From an uncultured Candidatus Rokubacteria bacterium (GTDB lineage: Bacteria; Methylomirabilota; Methylomirabilia; Rokubacteriales; CSP1-6): a DNA stretch of 64,000 nt. Shown here piece by piece: positions 50,289 through 62,331 of this stretch. Under the pieces are notes generated by a model. It saw nothing but the letters and a program-made list of their open reading frames with translations, had not been told where the DNA came from and made no database searches. Numbering within the stretch: position 1 is the first letter of the stretch; every line of letters starts with the position of its first letter. A program made the position numbers and the translations under genes. The stretch covers positions 416,001 to 480,000 of the forward strand of contig CAVYTA010000006.1 of NCBI GenBank assembly GCA_963771355.1, written 5' to 3'.

Positions 50289-51665
50289 ATGAGCGAGCGC
50301 GCGGCGGAGGTCGTCATCTGCGGGGCCGGGATCGCGGGGGTGGCGCTGGCGTATCACCTCGCGGTGCGACGGGGCATGGCCGGGGTGGTGCTCGTGGACG
50401 AGCGGCCGCCGCTCTCCCTCACCAGCGACAAATCCACCGAGTCGTACCGGAACTGGTGGCCGGGTCCCGGCAACGACATGGTGGCGGTGATGAACCGCAG
50501 CATCGATCTCCTCGAGGAGCTGGCGCGCGAGAGCGGCAATGTCTTTCGCATGAACCGGCGCGGCTACCTCTTCGCCACCGCCGATCCCGCCCGGGTGCCG
50601 GACTTCGTGCGCGCCGCCGAGGAGGCGACCGGGCGCGGGGCGGGAGCCACCCGCCTGCACGCTACTCCGTCGAGCGACTATCGTCCGGCGCCCGCGGACG
50701 GCTTCGAGGAGCAGCCGGTGGGGGCCGACGTCATCACCGACCGGAGCCTGATCCGGCGGCATTTCCCCTACCTGGCGGAGGATACGGTGGCGCTGCTCCA
50801 CGCGCGCCGCTGCGGCTGGTTCAGCGGGCAGCAGCTCGGCATGTATCTGCTCGAGCGCGCGCGCGAGAAGGGCGCGCGCCTGGTCGAGGGGCGAGTGGAG
50901 ACGGTGGACGTCGCCGGAGGACGCGTGCGCGGCGTCACCCTGGCGGGACCGGGCGGGACCCGGCACATCGCCACGCCACGCTTCGTGAACGCGGCGGGCC
51001 CCTTCGCCAAGGCGGTCGGCCGTCTTCTCGGAGTGGAGCTGCCCGTGTTCTGCGAGCGCCATTGCAAGGTCGCCTTCAACGACACGCTGCGCGCGGTGCC
51101 CCGCGAGGCGCCCATGATGATCTGGACCGATCCGGTGCGGCTGCCCTGGACCGCGGACGAGCGCGAGGAGCTGCGGGAGTCCGACGCCATCCGCCATCTC
51201 CTCGAGGAATTACCCGCCGGCGTGCACGGCCGGCCCGAGGGCGCGGGCGAGAGCCCGGTGGTGCTCGGCATCTGGACCTATGACGTCGAGCCGGTGGAGC
51301 CGGAGTTCCCCATCGCGTTCGATCCGGCCTCCGCGGAAATTGTGATCCGCGGGCTCTCGCGGATGATCCCGGCGCTGGGCGGCTATGCGCAGCGCCTGCC
51401 CCGGTCTTTCGTGGACGGCGGCTACTACACCAAGACGGAGGAGAACCGCTTCCTTGCCTGCCCGCTCCCGGTGGAGGGGGCCTATCTCCTCGGGGGACTC
51501 TCCGGCTACGGCCTCATGTCCTCCAATGGTGCCGCCGATCTCCTGGCCGACCATATCGTCGGGCGCCCGCTGCCCGACTATGCGGGCGCCTTCCACCTGG
51601 ACCGCTACGCCGACCCCGCCTACCGGGCCCTCCTCACGAGCTGGGGGGACTCGGGCCAGCTCTAG
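50289..51665 (+). CDS. FAD-dependent oxidoreductase (DAO/sarcosine oxidase beta-like)
   Basis: GAGIAG FAD-binding motif; VNAAGP and GLSGYG motifs. Confidence 0.88.
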   Translation: MSERAAEVVICGAGIAGVALAYHLAVRRGMAGVVLVDERPPLSLTSDKSTESYRNWWPGPGNDMVAVMNRSIDLLEELARESGNVFRMNRRGYLFATADPARVPDFVRAAEEATGRGAGATRLHATPSSDYRPAPADGFEEQPVGADVITDRSLIRRHFPYLAEDTVALLHARRCGWFSGQQLGMYLLERAREKGARLVEGRVETVDVAGGRVRGVTLAGPGGTRHIATPRFVNAAGPFAKAVGRLLGVELPVFCERHCKVAFNDTLRAVPREAPMMIWTDPVRLPWTADEREELRESDAIRHLLEELPAGVHGRPEGAGESPVVLGIWTYDVEPVEPEFPIAFDPASAEIVIRGLSRMIPALGGYAQRLPRSFVDGGYYTKTEENRFLACPLPVEGAYLLGGLSGYGLMSSNGAADLLADHIVGRPLPDYAGAFHLDRYADPAYRALLTSWGDSGQL

Positions 51666-51742
51666 GAAGAGATGAGACGTAGCCTTTTAAGTTACTAGAA
51701 ACATGATCAAAATGGATACTTCATGTGGTCTCGATCCCGGCG

Positions 51743-51772
51743 TTTCACATCTGCACGGTCGCGGTGTCTCAT
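51743..51772 (+). promoter_or_regulatory. Putative ECF-type promoter, copy 1 (TTTCAC-N13-CGGTGTCTCAT)
   Basis: Same boxes and spacing as the copy at 53317-53346; lies 10 nt upstream of the sigma ATG. Confidence 0.6.
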
Positions 51773-51782
51773 GAGTAGAGTG

Positions 51783-52310
51783 ATGGCTGACGAGGCATTC
51801 GAGATCGTGGTGGCCGCCCACCACGCCGAGATACACCGGTACCTCGTGCGCGTGACTCGACGCCCGGGGGATGCCGATGATCTGTCTCAGGAGACCTTCA
51901 TCCGGGCCTTCCGTGCGCACTCGGCCTTGCCGGCAGGGTCGAATGTCCGCGCCTGGCTCTTCACCATCGCGACGAATCTGTGTCGAAACTACTGGCGCTC
52001 GGAGTCGCGGCGTCGCCGGGCTTACGAGGCCGCCGGCGAGACCGCGGCGCACCACGAAGAAGCCGAAGGGGAGGGCGCGATGGTCATGGAGCAGGCGAGT
52101 GAGGAGATCGGGCGCATCGTCGCCGCGCTGCCGCTCCGCCAGCGACTGGCCTTCACGCTCCGCAAGGTCCACGAGCTCGAGTACGAGGCCATCGGCCGGA
52201 GCCTCGACTGCTCTCCCGATACCGCGCGGGCGCATGTCTTCCAGGCGCTGCGCAAGATCCGACGCGGGCTCGATGCCCCGGCCGGGGCCCGCACGGAGTC
52301 CAAGCGATGA
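51783..52310 (+). CDS. ECF RNA polymerase sigma factor
   Basis: Region 2 DADDLSQETFIRA..RAWLFTIATNLCRN; region 4 LPLRQRLAF..YEAIG..TARAHVFQA. Confidence 0.92.
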   Translation: MADEAFEIVVAAHHAEIHRYLVRVTRRPGDADDLSQETFIRAFRAHSALPAGSNVRAWLFTIATNLCRNYWRSESRRRRAYEAAGETAAHHEEAEGEGAMVMEQASEEIGRIVAALPLRQRLAFTLRKVHELEYEAIGRSLDCSPDTARAHVFQALRKIRRGLDAPAGARTESKR

Positions 52311-53272
52311 CCAGAGAGCCCCGATCCTGTCGTGAGATCGAGCCGGACCTGATCGCGGTGGCGACCGCCGAGGCGCCGCCCGCCGCCGCCCGCCGCGTGG
52401 AGAGCCACGTGGCGGAGTGCGCGTCCTGCCGGAGCGAGCTCGCGCAGTATCAGACGGTCGACGGGCTCGTGACCGCGTACCGAGACACGCGCGCGCTCGA
52501 GGCCGACCCCACGCTGGCCCGCGCGCAGCTCGAGAGCCGGCTCGCGGACCTGCGCAGCCGCATCATGCGCTACGGCGTGTTCGACTCTCCGCTCGGGCCC
52601 ATCGCCATCGGCGTCTCGGAGCACGGGGTGTCCATGGTGGAGTACGTACGCCCGGCCGAGCGGACGGGCGGCGGGTTGGCGCGGCGGGCGGGCGGAGAAG
52701 CGGTGGAGGACCCCCGCCGGACGGAAGGGCTCTATCGCGAGCTGGCCGACTATCTCGACGGGCGGCGCACGCGGCTGGACTGGCCGCTCGATCTCCGGCG
52801 GACCCGGAGCGACTTCCAGCGGCGCGTCCTCGAGGCCACCGCGCGTCTTCCCTATGGGGCGGTGACCTCCTATGCGGGCATCGCGCGCGAGATCGGCGCG
52901 CCGCGCGCGACCCGCGCGGTGGCCCAGGCGCTCCGCCACAATCCACTCCCCATCGTGGTCCCGTGCCACCGCGTGATCGGCAGCAGCGGCGACCTCACCG
53001 GCTATGCGGGGACGCGCATCGGGCTCAAGCGAGATCTGCTGGCGGTGGAAGGCGTTCACACCATGCCCGGTCATGGCGACTTTCACATCGAGCGGCGCGC
53101 CGTCTACTACAAGTACCTCGATGGGGGTGAGTATTGCCTGCCGACCTGTGGTGGCATTCTCGAGAAGCCACTGGGTGACTTCACGGTATTCGGCTCGCGC
53201 GACCGCGCGGAAGCGGTGGGGCTCCAGCCCTGCACGGACTGCCGGCCCGATCTGCATCCGCTCCCCGCCTGA
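52307..53272 (+). CDS. Fusion: ZAS (zf-HC2) anti-sigma domain + O6-methylguanine-DNA methyltransferase + Ada-type Zn-binding domain
   Basis: HVAECASC; SPLG..FQRRV..RAVAQAL.HNP..PCHRVI; YCLPTC..AEAVGLQPCTDCRP. Confidence 0.85.
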   Translation: MTREPRSCREIEPDLIAVATAEAPPAAARRVESHVAECASCRSELAQYQTVDGLVTAYRDTRALEADPTLARAQLESRLADLRSRIMRYGVFDSPLGPIAIGVSEHGVSMVEYVRPAERTGGGLARRAGGEAVEDPRRTEGLYRELADYLDGRRTRLDWPLDLRRTRSDFQRRVLEATARLPYGAVTSYAGIAREIGAPRATRAVAQALRHNPLPIVVPCHRVIGSSGDLTGYAGTRIGLKRDLLAVEGVHTMPGHGDFHIERRAVYYKYLDGGEYCLPTCGGILEKPLGDFTVFGSRDRAEAVGLQPCTDCRPDLHPLPA

Positions 53273-53316
53273 CCGCTCGTACGTTTCCCGTTTTCACGCC
53301 CTTCACGGCTTTCGCC

Positions 53317-53346
53317 TTTCACGTTGCCTGCGCGCCGGTGTCTCAT
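53317..53346 (+). promoter_or_regulatory. Putative ECF-type promoter, copy 2 (TTTCAC-N13-CGGTGTCTCAT)
   Basis: Matches 51743-51772; precedes SD AAAGGAG and ATG 53375. Confidence 0.6.
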
Positions 53347-53374
53347 CTGTGAAGGCACGAGAAAGGAGCGCGCG

Positions 53375-53785
53375 ATGCACATCATCGGGACACTCATCGT
53401 GGTGGCGATACCCCTGGTCGGAATCTTCGGACTCCTGTGGCTCAGCGAGCGCTGGCAGGCGCGCCGCGAGGTCGGGCGGCACCTCCAGATCGCGGTCACC
53501 GACGCGGTGCACGGGGCGCTCGGCGCGGTGGCGGCACCGGTAGTGACGCGGCGCCCGGGCGGCGGCTGGCGGATCCAGATGCGGGTCACGCCGGGCCGGT
53601 CCGATCTGGCCGCGGCGCTCGTGCGTGTGACGGAAGATGTGATGGACCGTGCGACGGGCGAGATGCGGCGCCCCTTCGAGATCGTCCTGCTCCCGACGGA
53701 GGGGATCGGCGCCGCCGGGCACGGTCCGCGCGCCCTGGGCCAACGCAGCAAGAGCGCCGCGCCGCTGGCCGCGGCCGCGCGCTGA
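53375..53785 (+). CDS. Hypothetical protein with N-terminal TM helix
   Basis: SD AAAGGAG; hydrophobic N-terminus MHIIGTLIVVAIPLVGIFGLLWL. Confidence 0.65.
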   Translation: MHIIGTLIVVAIPLVGIFGLLWLSERWQARREVGRHLQIAVTDAVHGALGAVAAPVVTRRPGGGWRIQMRVTPGRSDLAAALVRVTEDVMDRATGEMRRPFEIVLLPTEGIGAAGHGPRALGQRSKSAAPLAAAAR

Positions 53786-53797
53786 GAGGAGGCCGCC

Positions 53798-53959
53798 ATG
53801 CTCAGCTACTACGCGCTGGAGAAAGTCGTGGAGATGCGGCTCGCCGAGCTTCGTGAGGAGGCGGCGCGGGCCCGGGCGGTGGCGTCTCCCGAGCCGGCTG
53901 CTCGGCCGGCTCCCGCCCGACCCCTTCGCTGGTTCCAGGTCCAGATCTTCGGTCGTTGA
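53798..53959 (+). CDS. Small protein, 53 aa (not in the ORF track)
   Basis: AGGAGG SD; translates as MLSYYALEKVVEMRLAELREEAARARAVASPEPAARPAPARPLRWFQVQIFGR. Confidence 0.6.
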   Translation: MLSYYALEKVVEMRLAELREEAARARAVASPEPAARPAPARPLRWFQVQIFGR

Positions 53960-53966
53960 GGGCCGA

Positions 53967-55256
53967 CTACCAGTACTGCATCGAGTCGCGCAGGATCCAC
54001 TCGAGGTCGGCGGCGCCGACCGGACGCGGCGCGCCGGCGAGAAGGCGCGGCTGCCTGAGCGTACCCTCGACGAGCGCGGGAATATCGTGCTCGCCATAGC
54101 CCACCGCGGTGAGCCCATTGGGGATGCCGGTGTCGCGCATGAGGGCGATGAGCGCGCCGGGCAGGGCCTCGCGGCGCTCGCGCTCGCCGAGCCCTTCGAC
54201 GGGAGCGCCCATCAGGGCGGCCGCGCGGAGGTGGCGGTCGGGGGCGGTGGCATAGGTGAAGCGGAAGGCCGCGGGCGCAGTGAGGATCACCGCCATGCCG
54301 TGCGGCACCATGGCATGGCGGGTGCGGTAGCCGCTGGGCACGTAATCCCGCACGAGCCCGGCGATGGGATACGCGAGCGCGTGGGGAATGTGCACGCCGG
54401 CGTTGCCGAAGCCGATGCCGGCATAGTTGGCGGCCAGTGCGAGGTTCACCCGTGCCTCGAGATCGAGCCCGTTGAGCACGGCCCGCCGCAGGTAGCGCGC
54501 GACGTGCTCCATGGCCTTCTCGCACCAGACGTCGCTGGCGGGATTGGCGCCGATATAGGCGGGCCGGTCCGGCGGATGATGCTTGGCGCGGGCATTGTAC
54601 GGGCGCGTCGTGTACGACTCGATGGCGTGGGTGAGGATGTCGGCGCCCGCCGCCGCCGTCACTTCCGGTGGGACGGTGAGGGTGTTGAGCGGATCCACCA
54701 CGCCGAGGGTGGGGCGCAGCAGCCGATGCGACACCCCCGCCTTGATGTTCTGGTCCAGCACATGGGTCACCGCCACCGCGGTGGTCTCGCTGCCGGTGCC
54801 GGCGGTGGTGGGCACCGCGATCAGGGGCTTGAGCGGCCCCGGCACCGGGACACCCTTGCCCACCGGCTTGTTGAGGTAGTCGAGTAGCGGCGCGGGATGG
54901 CAGGTGAGGAGGTTGGCGGCCTTGCACGTGTCGATGGTGCTCCCGCCGCCTACCGCGATGAGGCCGTCGAACTCCTTGGTACGCGCGTACTCCGCGGCCT
55001 CCTCCATGGACCGGTCGGTCGGCTCGACCTCGACACCGTCATAGACCTCCGCCTTGATCCCCTGCTCCTCGAGGAGCCCGCGCACGCGGTCGGGCAGGCC
55101 CGCAGCGGCGAGATTGCGATCGGTGAAGATCAGGGCCTTGGCCAGTCCCAGCCGGGCGGCGTCGAAGCCGATCTCCTCCATGGCGCCCAGCCCGAACTTG
55201 ATGGGCGACATCTCCATCACGAAGACGGTTTCCGTCGGCAGCGTCACGCCCTTCAT
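53967..55256 (-). CDS. Hydroxyacid-oxoacid transhydrogenase (iron-containing ADH family)
   Basis: GGGSTIDTCK, PTTAGTGSE, DILTHAIESYT and GNAGVHIPH motifs. Confidence 0.9.
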   Translation of the reverse strand: MKGVTLPTETVFVMEMSPIKFGLGAMEEIGFDAARLGLAKALIFTDRNLAAAGLPDRVRGLLEEQGIKAEVYDGVEVEPTDRSMEEAAEYARTKEFDGLIAVGGGSTIDTCKAANLLTCHPAPLLDYLNKPVGKGVPVPGPLKPLIAVPTTAGTGSETTAVAVTHVLDQNIKAGVSHRLLRPTLGVVDPLNTLTVPPEVTAAAGADILTHAIESYTTRPYNARAKHHPPDRPAYIGANPASDVWCEKAMEHVARYLRRAVLNGLDLEARVNLALAANYAGIGFGNAGVHIPHALAYPIAGLVRDYVPSGYRTRHAMVPHGMAVILTAPAAFRFTYATAPDRHLRAAALMGAPVEGLGERERREALPGALIALMRDTGIPNGLTAVGYGEHDIPALVEGTLRQPRLLAGAPRPVGAADLEWILRDSMQYW

Positions 55257-58418: not shown

Positions 58419-59447
58419 TCACTCGTTGAGGAGGTCCTTGATCGCGTCCATCACCGGATTGGCGCCCGAGGGCTTCGGCGTGGCGGCGGGCTGGCCGCCC
58501 GGCTTGCGCAGGTACTTCGCGACGCAGTCGTACTGTTCCCAGCCCTTGAGGGGGGCGTCCAGGTCCACCGACTTCCACTTCGGGTGGCCGTTCCTCACCA
58601 GCCACGCGAGGTTGGTCGAGATGGACTGCGCGAATTGCCCGATGACATCGCAGTCCTTCCGCCGGAAGTCGAACGAGATCATCACCGCCTTCACCGCCAC
58701 CGTGCTCAGCACCTGCGGCTGCCACGGGTAGGTGCGGGCCGGAATCTCGGCGCGGGTGTAGAACTCGGTGATGCTCTTGTTCGTGATCGGGAGCAGGGCG
58801 AGCCCGTCCGCCTCGGTCACTCCCTCGCTGAGCAGCTTCACGGGATAGCCGGCCACGTAGAACATGGCGTCGATGCGTCCGGCCTTCAGCTCGGCCAGCG
58901 CCTCATCGGTGTCGATGAGGACCATCTCCTTCGGCACCACGTCGGACACCTTGAACAGGAGCCGCGCGGTCAGGTAGGTCCCGCTCCCTTCCCGGCCGAT
59001 GGCCACACGCCGGTCGGTGAGGTCGTCGAAGTCGGTGATCTCCTTCCGCCCGAGCAGGTGGATCTCCTCGTTGTAGAGGGGAAACACCATCTTGGTCTTC
59101 TTGGCGATGCGCTTGAGCACCGGATCCGACTGGACGCGGGCCACGAAGGCGAGCACGTCCGACTGGACGATGCCCAGCTGGGTATTGGGCTTCTGATATA
59201 CCGCGAACACGTTTTCGATGGAGCCCTTGGAGGTGACGACGGAGAGGTCGACTCCCGTCTGCTTGCCGAGTCGCTGGAGATTCAGACCGAACTGGTAGTA
59301 GGTACCCCGCTCGCCTCCGGTGGTGATGCCGAGCTCGTTCGCGGCGCCCGCGGAGCCGGTCGCGACCAGGATCAGGGTGAGGCAGGCCAGGGTGATGCGG
59401 CTCAAGACGATGACGCAGCAATACTGTGCTGTCACTCGGTGAATCAT
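58419..59447 (-). CDS. TAXI family TRAP transporter solute-binding subunit
   Basis: TGGERGTYY, SKGSIEN, GIVQSDV, LYNEEIHL and GSGT motifs. Confidence 0.88.
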   Translation of the reverse strand: MIHRVTAQYCCVIVLSRITLACLTLILVATGSAGAANELGITTGGERGTYYQFGLNLQRLGKQTGVDLSVVTSKGSIENVFAVYQKPNTQLGIVQSDVLAFVARVQSDPVLKRIAKKTKMVFPLYNEEIHLLGRKEITDFDDLTDRRVAIGREGSGTYLTARLLFKVSDVVPKEMVLIDTDEALAELKAGRIDAMFYVAGYPVKLLSEGVTEADGLALLPITNKSITEFYTRAEIPARTYPWQPQVLSTVAVKAVMISFDFRRKDCDVIGQFAQSISTNLAWLVRNGHPKWKSVDLDAPLKGWEQYDCVAKYLRKPGGQPAATPKPSGANPVMDAIKDLLNE

Positions 59448-59702
59448 GACATCCTCCTCGTTGCGACGGGACTTACCTCCCGCGGGTGCGGTGGCGCAGG
59501 ATAGGAGGATAGATGTGAGACTGTCAAGGGGGCCTTACATCAAGAACTGTCGGAAACATTGCCTTTTTGAGGGATGCGCAGGACTTACCGTCAGATAACT
59601 AGCTGAATTAATTGACAAGTTATAATCAGCACGGAACGTGCATATAACCCGTCCGAGCCGACCGACCGATGACTCTCATGCGAATTACCTGTCGGCAGAA
59701 GA

Positions 59703-59732
59703 TTGACATCAAAACCCCCTGCAGATTAGGGT
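59703..59732 (+). promoter_or_regulatory. Putative sigma70 promoter for the peptide operon
   Basis: TTGACA (59703) - 18 nt - TAGGGT (59727), then AGGAG and ATG 59750. Confidence 0.45.
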
Positions 59733-59749
59733 GGTAGGAGCCGAAGGAC

Positions 59750-59971
59750 ATGAGCGAGCACAAGCCAGAGTCAAACGAGATTCGACGCGTCGCCGCCGAC
59801 AAGACGGGCGACAAGGCGTCCTCGCCCAGCCGCCGGCGGGCCCTCAAGGCCGCGCTGGCTGCGACCCCCATCATCATGTCGATCAAGAGTCGGCCCGCCT
59901 TCGCGGGCCCCGCCTGCGATCAGGCTACGACCAGCTGCCAGCAATCCTCCCGTCTGTCCAGTGTCCACTAG
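59750..59971 (+). CDS. Putative RiPP precursor / Tat-like small peptide (73 aa)
   Basis: SD; SRRRALK..PAFA|GPACDQATTSCQQSSRLSSVH; lies immediately upstream of PqqD/RRE and kinase genes. Confidence 0.7.
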   Translation: MSEHKPESNEIRRVAADKTGDKASSPSRRRALKAALAATPIIMSIKSRPAFAGPACDQATTSCQQSSRLSSVH

Positions 59972-60023
59972 GCCGTAAGAAGAAGTAAGCGAAGGTCGCC
60001 CCGTCCCACCCTCCTCACCCCGG

Positions 60024-60332
60024 ATTCTCTCGGCTCCACCCGATTCCTCCGAAACGAGCTGGCAGCTGGCCGAGGGCTGTCGTCTGCACTGGAAGGCCTG
60101 GGACGACGAGTTCGTGATCTTCGACGAAGGCTCGGGTGATACGCACCTGCTCGACCCGCTGGCCGCCGAGTTCCTGAAGGTCCTCGAAGAGTCGCCGGGG
60201 GAGGTGCCCGGCCTCGCCCGTCGGCTCGGGGCGCGGCTCGATCTTGCGCGCGACGCCGATCTCACCCGGCGCGTGCGCGAGCTGGTGGAGCGGTTCGTCG
60301 CCGTCGGCCTGGTGGAAGCCGCGCATCCGTGA
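60024..60332 (+). CDS. PqqD family / RiPP recognition element protein (HPr-rel-A system type); start uncertain
   Basis: In-frame WQLAEGCRLHWKAWDDEFVIFDEGSGDTHLLDPLAAEFL..RELVERFVAVGLV; frame open from 59979, first canonical start only at 60114. Confidence 0.8.
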   Translation: MLSAPPDSSETSWQLAEGCRLHWKAWDDEFVIFDEGSGDTHLLDPLAAEFLKVLEESPGEVPGLARRLGARLDLARDADLTRRVRELVERFVAVGLVEAAHP

Positions 60333-61247
60333 AGCTGGGTGCGCTGACCCTCCCCGAGCTCACCGCGCGGCTCGCGCGCGGCGGCCTCGACATGGACACC
60401 GGGCCGTTCGTGGTGCGCATCGAGACGGAGATCCCCGCGCTCGCCGAGGAGATCCATCTCCTCTACGGCGATTTCTCCGTGGACGAGGGCGGTGGCCTGG
60501 CCGACTTCCACGTGTCGGTCCGCCGCCCGGCGGGACCGCTCGGGTTACGCCGGTGGTGGCGTCAACAGGTCAAGGTCTATCTCGATGAGGCGCGTCCCTT
60601 CGAGCCCCTGCCCATTGACATGGCGGTGCCGGTGCTGGAGTGGAGCATCAACTGGTGCGCCGCCACCCAGGCCAATCAGTACGTGATGATCCACGCCGCG
60701 GTGCTCGAGCGCGACCGGCGGGTCCTCGTGTTGCCCGGCGTCAGCGGAGCTGGCAAGAGCACGTTGTGCGCGGGCCTGGCCCTGCGAGGCTGGCGGCTCT
60801 TCTCGGACGAGTTCGCCCTGATTCGTCCGGCCGACGGGCAGGTAGATCCATGGCCGCGGCCCATCAGCCTCAAGAACGACTCCATCGAGGTGATCCGACG
60901 ATGGGCTCCCGACTCGCGCCTGAGCACGCTCGTGCCCAATACCAAGAAGGGCACGATGGCGCACCTGCGCCCGCCCGCCGGGAGTGTCGAGCGGGTGGGG
61001 GAGCCGGCGATGCCGGCGTGGATCGTGTTCCCCACCTTCGCGCGCGAGGCGGCGCCGCAGCTCGACTCGCCTGCCGCGCGCCCGCGCCTTCTTCAAGCTC
61101 GCTGACTGCTCGTTCAACTACGAGTCCCTCGGCCTTCGAGGCTTCACCACGCTTTCGCGTATGATCGACGGGTGCGACGCCTACGAGTTCACCTACTCGA
61201 GCCTCGAGGACGCCCAGAGCCTGCTCGGCGCGCTGCCGCTGCCCTAG
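60329..61247 (+). CDS. HPr kinase-related kinase (HprK-related kinase A type); apparent +1 frameshift at ~61064
   Basis: IHAAVL, Walker A GVSGAGKST, FSDEFAL and PRPISLKN; C-terminus RARAFFKLADCSFNY..YSSLEDA in the next frame. Confidence 0.85.
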
Positions 61248-61260
61248 GGTCGGCCTCCTG

Positions 61261-62331
61261 ATGGACCGCGCGTTGCTTCTCCGCGCGCTCCGCGAGCCCG
61301 CGTCGATGGGCGGCCTGGCGCCCGCCGAGTGGGACGTCCTCCTCCGCCAGGGCCGGCACATGGGCGCGCTCGGCCGTCTCTGCGCCCTCGCCGCGGCGGC
61401 CGGCGTGCTGCCCGCGGTGCCGTCCCGGGTGCGCGTGCGCCTGGAGGCGGCGCTGGAAGACGTGGAGCAGCAGCACCGGCTCATCCGGTGGGAAGTCATC
61501 CGCCTCCGCCGAGCGCTGGTCGGGACCGGCGTGCCCCTCGTGCTGCTCAAGGGCGCCGCGTATCTCCACGCCGGGCTGCCAGCCTCACGCGGCCGCCAGT
61601 TCTCGGATGTCGACATCCTGGTGCCGCGCGCGAGCCTCCACGAGGTCGAGGCTGCCCTGCTCCGCGAAGGCTGGAAAATGGAAGAGATCAGCGCGTACGA
61701 CGAGCGCTACTACCGGGAATGGTCACACGAGCTTCCGCCGCTGGTGCACCCGAAGCGGCACGTGATGCTGGACGTGCATCACAATATCCTGCCGCCGACC
61801 GGGCGGCTGCGACCGGATCCGCGGCGGCTGCTGGAGGCGACGGTCCCCGTCGCGGCGGACGGACTCCGGGTGCTCGGGCCCGCGGACATGGTGCTGCACA
61901 GCGCCTGCCACCTCCTCCAGTCGGGCGAGCACGACAAGAGCCTGCGCGACCTCGGGGACCTGGACGCGCTGATACGGCAGTTCGCCGCCGCACCGCGCTT
62001 CGGTGACGAGCTGGCCGCGCGCGCGGCCGCCCTCGACCTCGAGCGGCCGCTCTACTACGCGCTGCGCTTCGCCGCGCAGCTGATCGGCACGCCGATTCCC
62101 GAGGCCAGTGCCCGCGCCGTCCGACACGCGGCGCCCCCCGCCCCCGTTCGCGCGGCCATGGACCGTCTCTTCGCAGCCACCATCCAGCCCGCACCTCCAC
62201 TGGATCCGCCGGGTCGCGTCAGGCTGGCGCGGGCGGTGCTGACGGCTCGTTACCACTGGCTGCGCATGCCCCCCTCGCTCCTTGTCCGTCATCTCGCGCA
62301 CAAGATCGGAGGAAGGAGGAAACGCGGGTGA
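61261..62331 (+). CDS. Nucleotidyltransferase family protein (NTP_transf_5-like)
   Basis: LLKGAAY, RQFSDVDILV, DVHH and LRDLGDLD motifs. Confidence 0.88.
   Translation: MDRALLLRALREPASMGGLAPAEWDVLLRQGRHMGALGRLCALAAAAGVLPAVPSRVRVRLEAALEDVEQQHRLIRWEVIRLRRALVGTGVPLVLLKGAAYLHAGLPASRGRQFSDVDILVPRASLHEVEAALLREGWKMEEISAYDERYYREWSHELPPLVHPKRHVMLDVHHNILPPTGRLRPDPRRLLEATVPVAADGLRVLGPADMVLHSACHLLQSGEHDKSLRDLGDLDALIRQFAAAPRFGDELAARAAALDLERPLYYALRFAAQLIGTPIPEASARAVRHAAPPAPVRAAMDRLFAATIQPAPPLDPPGRVRLARAVLTARYHWLRMPPSLLVRHLAHKIGGRRKRG

Follow-up and report, generated by a model that had tools for sequence, protein, structure and literature searches.

A conserved two-part motif, a probable promoter, at a Rokubacteria ECF sigma factor locus and a candidate switch combining anti-sigma and alkyltransferase domains

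Introduction

The locus described here raises the question of what a two-part motif, repeated ahead of an ECF sigma factor gene and again behind its partner gene, stands for: is it the promoter that this sigma recognizes, and if so, which genes and which signal does it serve? The window (the whole stretch of DNA analysed, 64,000 nucleotides, C6:416001-480000) comes from a genome of 5.53 Mb and 70% GC (G000), that of a soil bacterium whose closest named relatives are Candidatus Rokubacteria/Methylomirabilota. The original prediction took TTTCAC-N13-CGGTGTCTCAT, seen with identical spacing before the sigma gene and before the gene at 53375, as the target promoter of the sigma. Both occurrences and their common spacing were verified in the sequence (Table 1).

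An autoregulated ECF promoter is by itself ordinary; PMC7776599 presents it as the normal case that ECF promoters are discovered through autoregulation and that a regulon has no more than three promoters. The promoter described here matters as the read-out of a candidate switch in which an anti-sigma domain is combined with both Ada alkyl-accepting modules.

Table 1. Features of the sigma locus and regulon sites of the source genome. Positions refer to the window unless a contig or protein residues are named.
Feature	Position	Strand	Details
Degenerate minus-strand copy	51672..51701	-	chance resemblance in an AT-rich intergenic patch; outside the system
Promoter site 1 (predicted autoregulatory)	51743..51772	+	-35 TTTCACA 51743-51749; extended -10 CGGTGTC 51762-51768; score 37.8
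ECF sigma factor, 175 aa	51783..52310	+	PF04542 and PF08281; sigma2 and sigma4 only
Soluble fusion protein, 321 aa	52307..53272	+	three domains; start overlaps sigma stop (ATGA)
Zinc anti-sigma domain (zf-HC2)	fusion residues 1-88		C8, H34, C38, C41
O6-alkylguanine alkyltransferase domain	fusion residues 87-250		PCHR, C220
Ada-like Cys4 domain	fusion residues 273-316		C277, C281, C309, C312
Two extra TTCAC boxes	53292..53306	+	imperfect repeats of local sequence, lacking a partner -10; no conservation
Promoter site 2 (predicted)	53317..53346	+	-35 TTTCACG 53317-53323; -10 CGGTGTC 53336-53342; score 30.7
136-aa protein	53375..53785	+	hydrophobic N-terminal stretch; usual first gene behind site 2
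53-aa small protein	53798..53959	+	follows the 136-aa gene in the site-2 operon; comparable small ORFs in relatives
Unlinked regulon site	C4:208955		score 37.3; precedes a DinB-superfamily protein of 154 aa
Unlinked regulon site	C1:244187		score 18.4; precedes a DinB-superfamily protein of 150 aa

Conservation of the motif ahead of the sigma gene

The two copies are the only exact occurrences of TTTCAC-N13-CGGTGTCTCAT in the whole genome, and about 1e-4 such pairs at a fixed spacing are expected by chance. A GTG at 51780 and an ATG at 51783 lie 11 and 14 nt, respectively, behind the extended -10 box of site 1, and the gene behind site 2 exhibits a Shine-Dalgarno sequence. The fusion protein gave a near full-length match in 49 of 61 related genomes (E<1e-90), and 50 orthologous loci were examined, 49 of which contain the sigma start. 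When one mismatch per box and an inner gap of 13-14 nt were allowed, the motif was present within 150 nt 5' of the sigma gene in all 49. A second site is found 3' of the fusion gene in 45 of the 50 loci, mostly ahead of a homologue of the 53375 gene. Across 48 non-self site copies, the boxes are near-invariant and the spacer is free, giving TTTCACR-N12-YGGKGTY as the consensus, with a weakly conserved T-Y-A behind it. The bipartite -35/-10 element first proposed is borne out, but not the exact wording of its -10 box, as the GTCTCAT tail occurs in 13 of 49 site-1 copies and 3 of 45 site-2 copies.

A motif matrix was built from 98 orthologous sites, with a training minimum of 23.0. As the training sites had been picked with a pattern, held-out genomes were tested, and the strict pattern was found 10-14 nt before the sigma start in 11/11 held-out loci. 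In the source genome, four sites exhibit the pattern at spacing 12, whereas any of the other spacings between 8 and 17 gives none or one (0.22 expected). The first in-frame ATG or GTG lies 7-12 nt after GTY in 39 of the 49 training loci, which suggests that the sigma mRNA starting at site 1 is leaderless.

Neither a sigma70-like promoter, nor a plus-strand terminator, nor an Rfam match was found in 51500-54200. Metatranscriptome contigs (four runs of one study) cover the sigma locus piecewise and, being assembled contigs, carry no start or strand; one of them spans site 2, as DNA carry-over or read-through would also give.

Two elements that had been added to the motif were rejected. The string TTTCTA...CGTCTCAT, considered a minus-strand copy of the same geometry, is present but scores -29.4, compared with the training minimum of 23.0, and no minus-strand site was found in the 130 nt before site 1 in the orthologues (best score -10.3, n=49). 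The extra TTCAC boxes do exist, at 53293 and 53302, but such boxes precede site 2 in just 5 of 45 loci and do not belong to the motif. The intergenic patch 5' of site 1 (51670-51730) is AT-rich and exhibits no sigma70 consensus match; the matching patch is AT-rich in two congeners too, and its sequence is not conserved.

Assignment of the motif to the adjacent sigma

Within a phylum sample of 121 genomes, the sigma was detected in 76. Every one of these has the strict pattern (1-8 sites, with a median of 4; 312 in total), compared with 13 of the 45 sigma-negative genomes (17 sites, 1-2 per genome); the 121 genomes are kin rather than independent samples, and they are incomplete, so this co-occurrence counts as support and not as a statistic. 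In at least one of these 13 sigma-negative genomes, G009, the cassette lies near a contig end. A control with the reversed motif gave 6 matches across all 121 genomes. In the set of 61 genomes, the six motif-less ones are all without this sigma, and two incomplete genomes (67% and 88%) have motif sites with no sigma found. Based on conservation upstream of the sigma gene, fixed spacing, position before the start, and co-occurrence with the sigma, the reading as an autoregulatory ECF-type bipartite promoter is upheld: from the comparative sequence data, TTTCACR-N12-YGGKGTY is very probably the -35/-10 promoter of the adjacent ECF sigma.

It is improbable that the motif serves instead as an operator or promoter for another factor, be it a different sigma or the Ada-like domain itself. 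The source genome does contain at least eight other ECF-like genes, among them a second sigma whose partner is an Ogt-Ada protein, but no motif lies upstream of eight such genes, and four of the six motif-less genomes (G014, G019, G032, and G037) carry an apparent second sigma/Ogt system. Moreover, the fusion protein exhibits neither a helix-turn-helix nor the Ada residues R45 and R71, and the geometry and position of the motif fit an ECF core promoter. The two copies flank the 1.5 kb sigma/anti-sigma cassette in the same orientation, but the proposal that its duplication or site-specific integration left them behind as direct repeats, or that they are a product of chance, can be dismissed. 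The site 1 and site 2 spacers are equally unlike within and between genomes (likeness of 0.38 in both cases over 40 loci; 0.25 in the window), the same motif is found ahead of unlinked genes, and site 2 remains in front of its gene in loci where other DNA has been inserted between them and the cassette.

In four loci (L018, L020, L025, and L029), a further motif copy is observed about 120-900 nt 5' of the sigma promoter, pointing to a possible extra regulon gene 5' of the sigma.

The sigma factor and its fusion partner

The sigma scores 79.5 bits against TIGR02937 (cut-off 42.9) and, as a short sigma70-family protein comprising regions 2 and 4 alone, belongs to group 4 (ECF). The sigma/fusion pair is found in most Rokubacteriales genomes searched, and the ATGA overlap is present in 44 of the 47 loci having both genes. 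At E<=0.01, Pfam detects the zinc anti-sigma domain (PF13490) in 28, the methyltransferase in 45, and the Ada domain (PF02805) in 43 of the 45 orthologues of the fusion protein. At the residue level, all 45 orthologues keep C8/H34/C38/C41, C220, and the four cysteines of the Ada type, and the zinc anti-sigma signature (Hx3Cx2C plus an upstream Cys) is likewise present in every orthologue. Y189, R203, C220, H221, and E248 of the alkyltransferase are also kept in 45/45; as in the human enzyme, C220 is the active-site cysteine and the other four are its supporting residues. Split matches at L002 (G002) and L007 (G006) indicate a frameshift close to the 5' end of the fusion gene, which could be an assembly error or a loss of the inhibitor.

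The AlphaFold model of the fusion protein (mean pLDDT of 86.5) matches the alkyltransferase 1wrj (Z 17.7, rmsd 1.8, 150 aligned), in keeping with the two-domain fold of this enzyme. The best non-alkyltransferase match is a weak one, of the N-terminal part to the anti-sigma RslA (Z 6.3, rmsd 4.3, 59 aligned); MucA, RsiW, RskA, and ChrR are also listed, amid unrelated helical rows. With the whole model as query, no match to the Ada N-domain fold appeared among the best 50 rows. When sigma residues 1-166 were modelled together with fusion residues 1-88, the complex scored 0.78, compared with 0.06 for the best control, with a contact agreement between runs of at least 88% and a partner pLDDT of at least 83. 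Of 157 solved complexes, 116 reach the mark used for this score, as do 2 of 215 mismatched pairs, and the score obtained may stem from likeness to solved zinc anti-sigma pairs. In the predicted contacts, anti-sigma helices 1 and 3 lie against sigma4, and a placement of helix 4 on sigma2 agrees with them; this matches the class I pattern. A dual interface to sigma2 and sigma4 is described for anti-sigma factors of class I in the portion of PMC7406223 available. From the model, we consider with good confidence that the fusion protein would bind the sigma as a class I zinc anti-sigma factor.

The Cys4 domain aligns to C38/C42/C69/C72 of N-Ada and exhibits no basic residues at Ada positions 39, 43, 45, and 71, its mean net charge being about -0.8. 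At positions 45 and 71, the five residues seen most often in the fusion orthologues include neither Arg nor Lys, and none of the 45 members contains a helix-turn-helix family. As the basic contact residues are lost, the Cys4 domain is unlikely to grip DNA in the manner of Ada, and its sequence makes Ada-like phosphotriester sensing doubtful. The same loss makes C220, or a direct attack on the zinc thiolates, the likelier trigger.

Genes behind the motif

Besides the two local sites, the regulon takes in two unlinked ones. In the matrix scan of the source genome, four gene-preceding sites exceed the null maximum of 12.0 (Table 1), the site at C1:244187 scoring below the training minimum. A weak hit of 16.4 at C6:1013766 was dropped as it lies inside a coding frame, and the other hits, of 13.8 and lower, were dropped as being near the null maximum. 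Scans with the spacer changed by +/-1 gave 0 and 2 weak hits. The expectation that a genome scan would return DNA-repair genes mostly fails, with DinB-superfamily genes dominating. Of the 22 DinB_2 matches in the source genome, only the two genes behind the unlinked sites have a site, and none was found before the alkA-like gene of this genome, its stand-alone ogt, or another gene that weakly resembles ogt.

At the locus itself, the 53375 protein matches no Pfam or NCBIfam family. In L015, L019, L026, and L038, the site-2 operon contains an inserted ORF family of 107-147 aa, which we take to be universal stress protein-like.

A search of the 61 genomes gave 224 pattern matches. Among the 150 matches listed, 79 sites outside the known loci, from 37 genomes, were examined, yielding 78 first ORFs; one listed site was left out. 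DinB-type proteins account for 38 of these 78 (one cluster of 37 and one further DinB_2), and a DUF2652 cluster for 9, again among the matches listed. All eight sampled members of the DinB-like cluster match DinB_2, DUF1706, or MDMPI_N, and both sampled members of the second cluster match DUF2652. An ogt gene lies behind the motif in at least five operons of relatives, as the first ORF in three and as the second gene in two. The remaining first ORFs stand alone or form small groups, and fragments of the sigma locus and uncertain start calls are among them. The DUF2652 targets are found at L051, L074, L078, L083-L085, L109, L121, and L128, and several are apparently leaderless. At L119 (G020:C2), a motif copy is located ahead of a TetR gene followed by another sigma-like gene, an arrangement that could be a regulatory cascade.

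In the DinB targets, a site of three histidines is conserved (35, 36, and 36 of 36). For the B. subtilis thiol S-transferases of the same superfamily, the available text of PMC5815605 gives three histidines as the only conserved residues, and by this analogy the DinB-type targets are putative thiol transferases. The regulon, a small and likely detoxifying gene set, would point two DinB-superfamily subfamilies and DUF2652 towards defence against alkylators or electrophiles.

A candidate alkylation switch

Our overall reading, to which we assign a probability of about 60%, is that the motif is the promoter of a sigma held by a zinc anti-sigma/alkyltransferase/Ada-like inhibitor and released by alkylating or thiol-reactive chemicals. 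In the resting state, the fusion protein would hold the ECF sigma off, with helices 1 and 3 of its anti-sigma domain predicted to cover sigma4 and helix 4 to cover sigma2. A one-way alkylation, either of C220 during O6-alkylguanine repair or of the Cys4 domain, would then unfold or destabilise the anti-sigma domain. The freed sigma would direct the synthesis of more sigma and of more repair-capable inhibitor, providing both feedback and reset, and would induce the DinB-type putative thiol transferases. In PMC4437013, irreversible alkylation is described as inactivating both Ada modules. We favour alkylation or an electrophile as the signal, with some reserve. More tentatively, the system could be a sigma-factor version of the Ada response, in which the suicide alkyltransferase is itself the anti-sigma factor and its spent cysteines release an ECF sigma towards thiol-transferase detoxification genes, acting through a promoter whose bases are now defined.

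The main rival retains the same promoter and the same protein pair but makes redox change or zinc loss at the zinc anti-sigma domain the switch, as in RsrA and ChrR, the other domains being co-expressed repair passengers. It would suit the loss of the DNA-binding residues from the Ada-like domain and the targets, which are mostly putative thiol transferases and not repair enzymes; cytoplasmic redox sensing is also described as frequent among soluble zinc anti-sigma factors in the available part of PMC7406223. We nevertheless consider it rather unlikely, as the fusion and C220 are retained in 45/45 orthologues, and related sigmas of Actinobacteria and Chloroflexi exhibit an alkyltransferase at +1 while the zinc domain is absent. 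Because these relatives keep just the alkyltransferase, its link to the sigma is broader than that of the zinc domain.

Release by alkylation, if correct, would imply that the 'orphan' methyltransferases adjacent to ECF122 sigmas in Actinobacteria and Chloroflexi are unrecognised anti-sigma factors of the same kind. Reconstruction of the switch in E. coli is feasible, since its sigma, inhibitor, promoter consensus, and targets are all defined, even though metagenome assemblies are the sole source for the host lineage here. Such a rebuilt switch would bear on possible alkylation signalling through sigma release and on a possible control of the ECF122 group by its methyltransferase neighbour.

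Comparison with known systems

The closest described group is ECF122. The available sections of PMC7826278 (Casas-Pastor et al. 2021) present it as restricted to Actinobacteria, with a methyltransferase at +1, no putative anti-sigma factor, and a low-information predicted promoter, CTCAC (-35)/CGTCTAC (-10); in the portion of PMC8999054 available, its mechanism is entered as unknown. In both systems, the gene at +1 of the ECF sigma encodes an O6-methylguanine methyltransferase, and the ECF122 promoter resembles TTTCACR/YGGKGTY without being identical. In contrast to ECF122, the motif described here is sharp, the host belongs to Methylomirabilota, and the +1 protein bears a zinc anti-sigma domain at its N-terminus and an Ada-like one at its C-terminus.

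Five actinobacterial sigma+ogt loci, which are only presumed to be ECF122, exhibit CTCAC-N18-GTT upstream, and one Chloroflexi locus exhibits TTTCAC-N17-GTT; the inter-box gap is 1 nt shorter here than in the five actinobacterial loci. The +1 proteins of these six loci contain neither the zinc nor the Ada domain. A FastTree phylogeny was built from 148 sigmas, the majority selected because they resemble this sigma family. In it, the actinobacterial/Chloroflexi sigma+ogt sequences and the Rokubacteria sigmas form one clade (support 0.99), separate from the other ECFs of the source genome. By sequence, the sigma is probably a relative of ECF122 that departs from two of its descriptors, the lack of an anti-sigma factor and the restriction to Actinobacteria, and the system is likely a sigma-based alkylator or electrophile response related to that group. 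In L159-L162 and L165 (Actinobacteria) and L163 (Chloroflexi), the Ogt exhibits an extra N-terminal segment of about 20-65 aa replacing the zinc domain, possibly an unrecognised anti-sigma element. For the short extension of L159, homology to anti-sigma helix 4 did not emerge, as the alignment begins only at residue 87.

ECF203, also actinobacterial, is described in the available sections of PMC7826278 with a methyltransferase, an Ada zinc domain, and a TetR neighbour, and with no anti-sigma factor and no conserved promoter. It shares with our locus the methyltransferase at +1 and a nearby Ada zinc domain, whereas an anti-sigma domain and a sharp motif are present here and the flanking genes encode an FAD oxidoreductase and an Fe-alcohol dehydrogenase. 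The source genome contains a second system at C5, about 930080-932040, which resembles ECF203 more than the 51783 sigma locus does; here an ECF sigma precedes an Ogt-Ada fusion that lacks the zinc anti-sigma motif. Its Ada domain, the only PF02805 match above the cut-off in this genome, keeps the basic residues (charge of +3 to +7 in the source genome and 12 similar loci), and its upstream sequence differs. This second system may be a true phosphotriester sensor. The ORF after its Ogt-Ada gene is presumably 2OG-Fe(II) oxygenase-like.

With SigL-RslA, SigW-RsiW, and SigE-ChrR, the pair described here shares the Hx3Cx2C signature, a four-helix domain, a predicted dual contact to sigma2 and sigma4, translational coupling, and probable autoregulation. 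Where those pairs append a membrane/extracytoplasmic or a cupin domain, the fusion protein here carries a suicide alkyltransferase together with an Ada-like Cys4 module. The fusion also resembles E. coli Ada, as far as the available part of PMC4437013 describes it, in having both alkyl-accepting modules in one regulator and an apparent positive feedback on itself. Unlike Ada, it lacks the AraC-type helix-turn-helix and the basic DNA-binding residues and has the reverse domain order; the predicted output is sigma release rather than activator binding, and the targets are mainly DinB-type rather than alkA/alkB/aidB. The literature searched contains no description of the fusion or of the promoter, and the motif tables in the supplement of PMC7826278 may bear on novelty.

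Elsewhere in the window, 58419-62331 comprises one minus-strand ORF and several plus-strand ORFs unrelated to the sigma locus. We take the former to be a TAXI-like substrate-binding protein and the latter to include an HprK-related kinase, a PqqD-like protein, and a nucleotidyltransferase-like protein.
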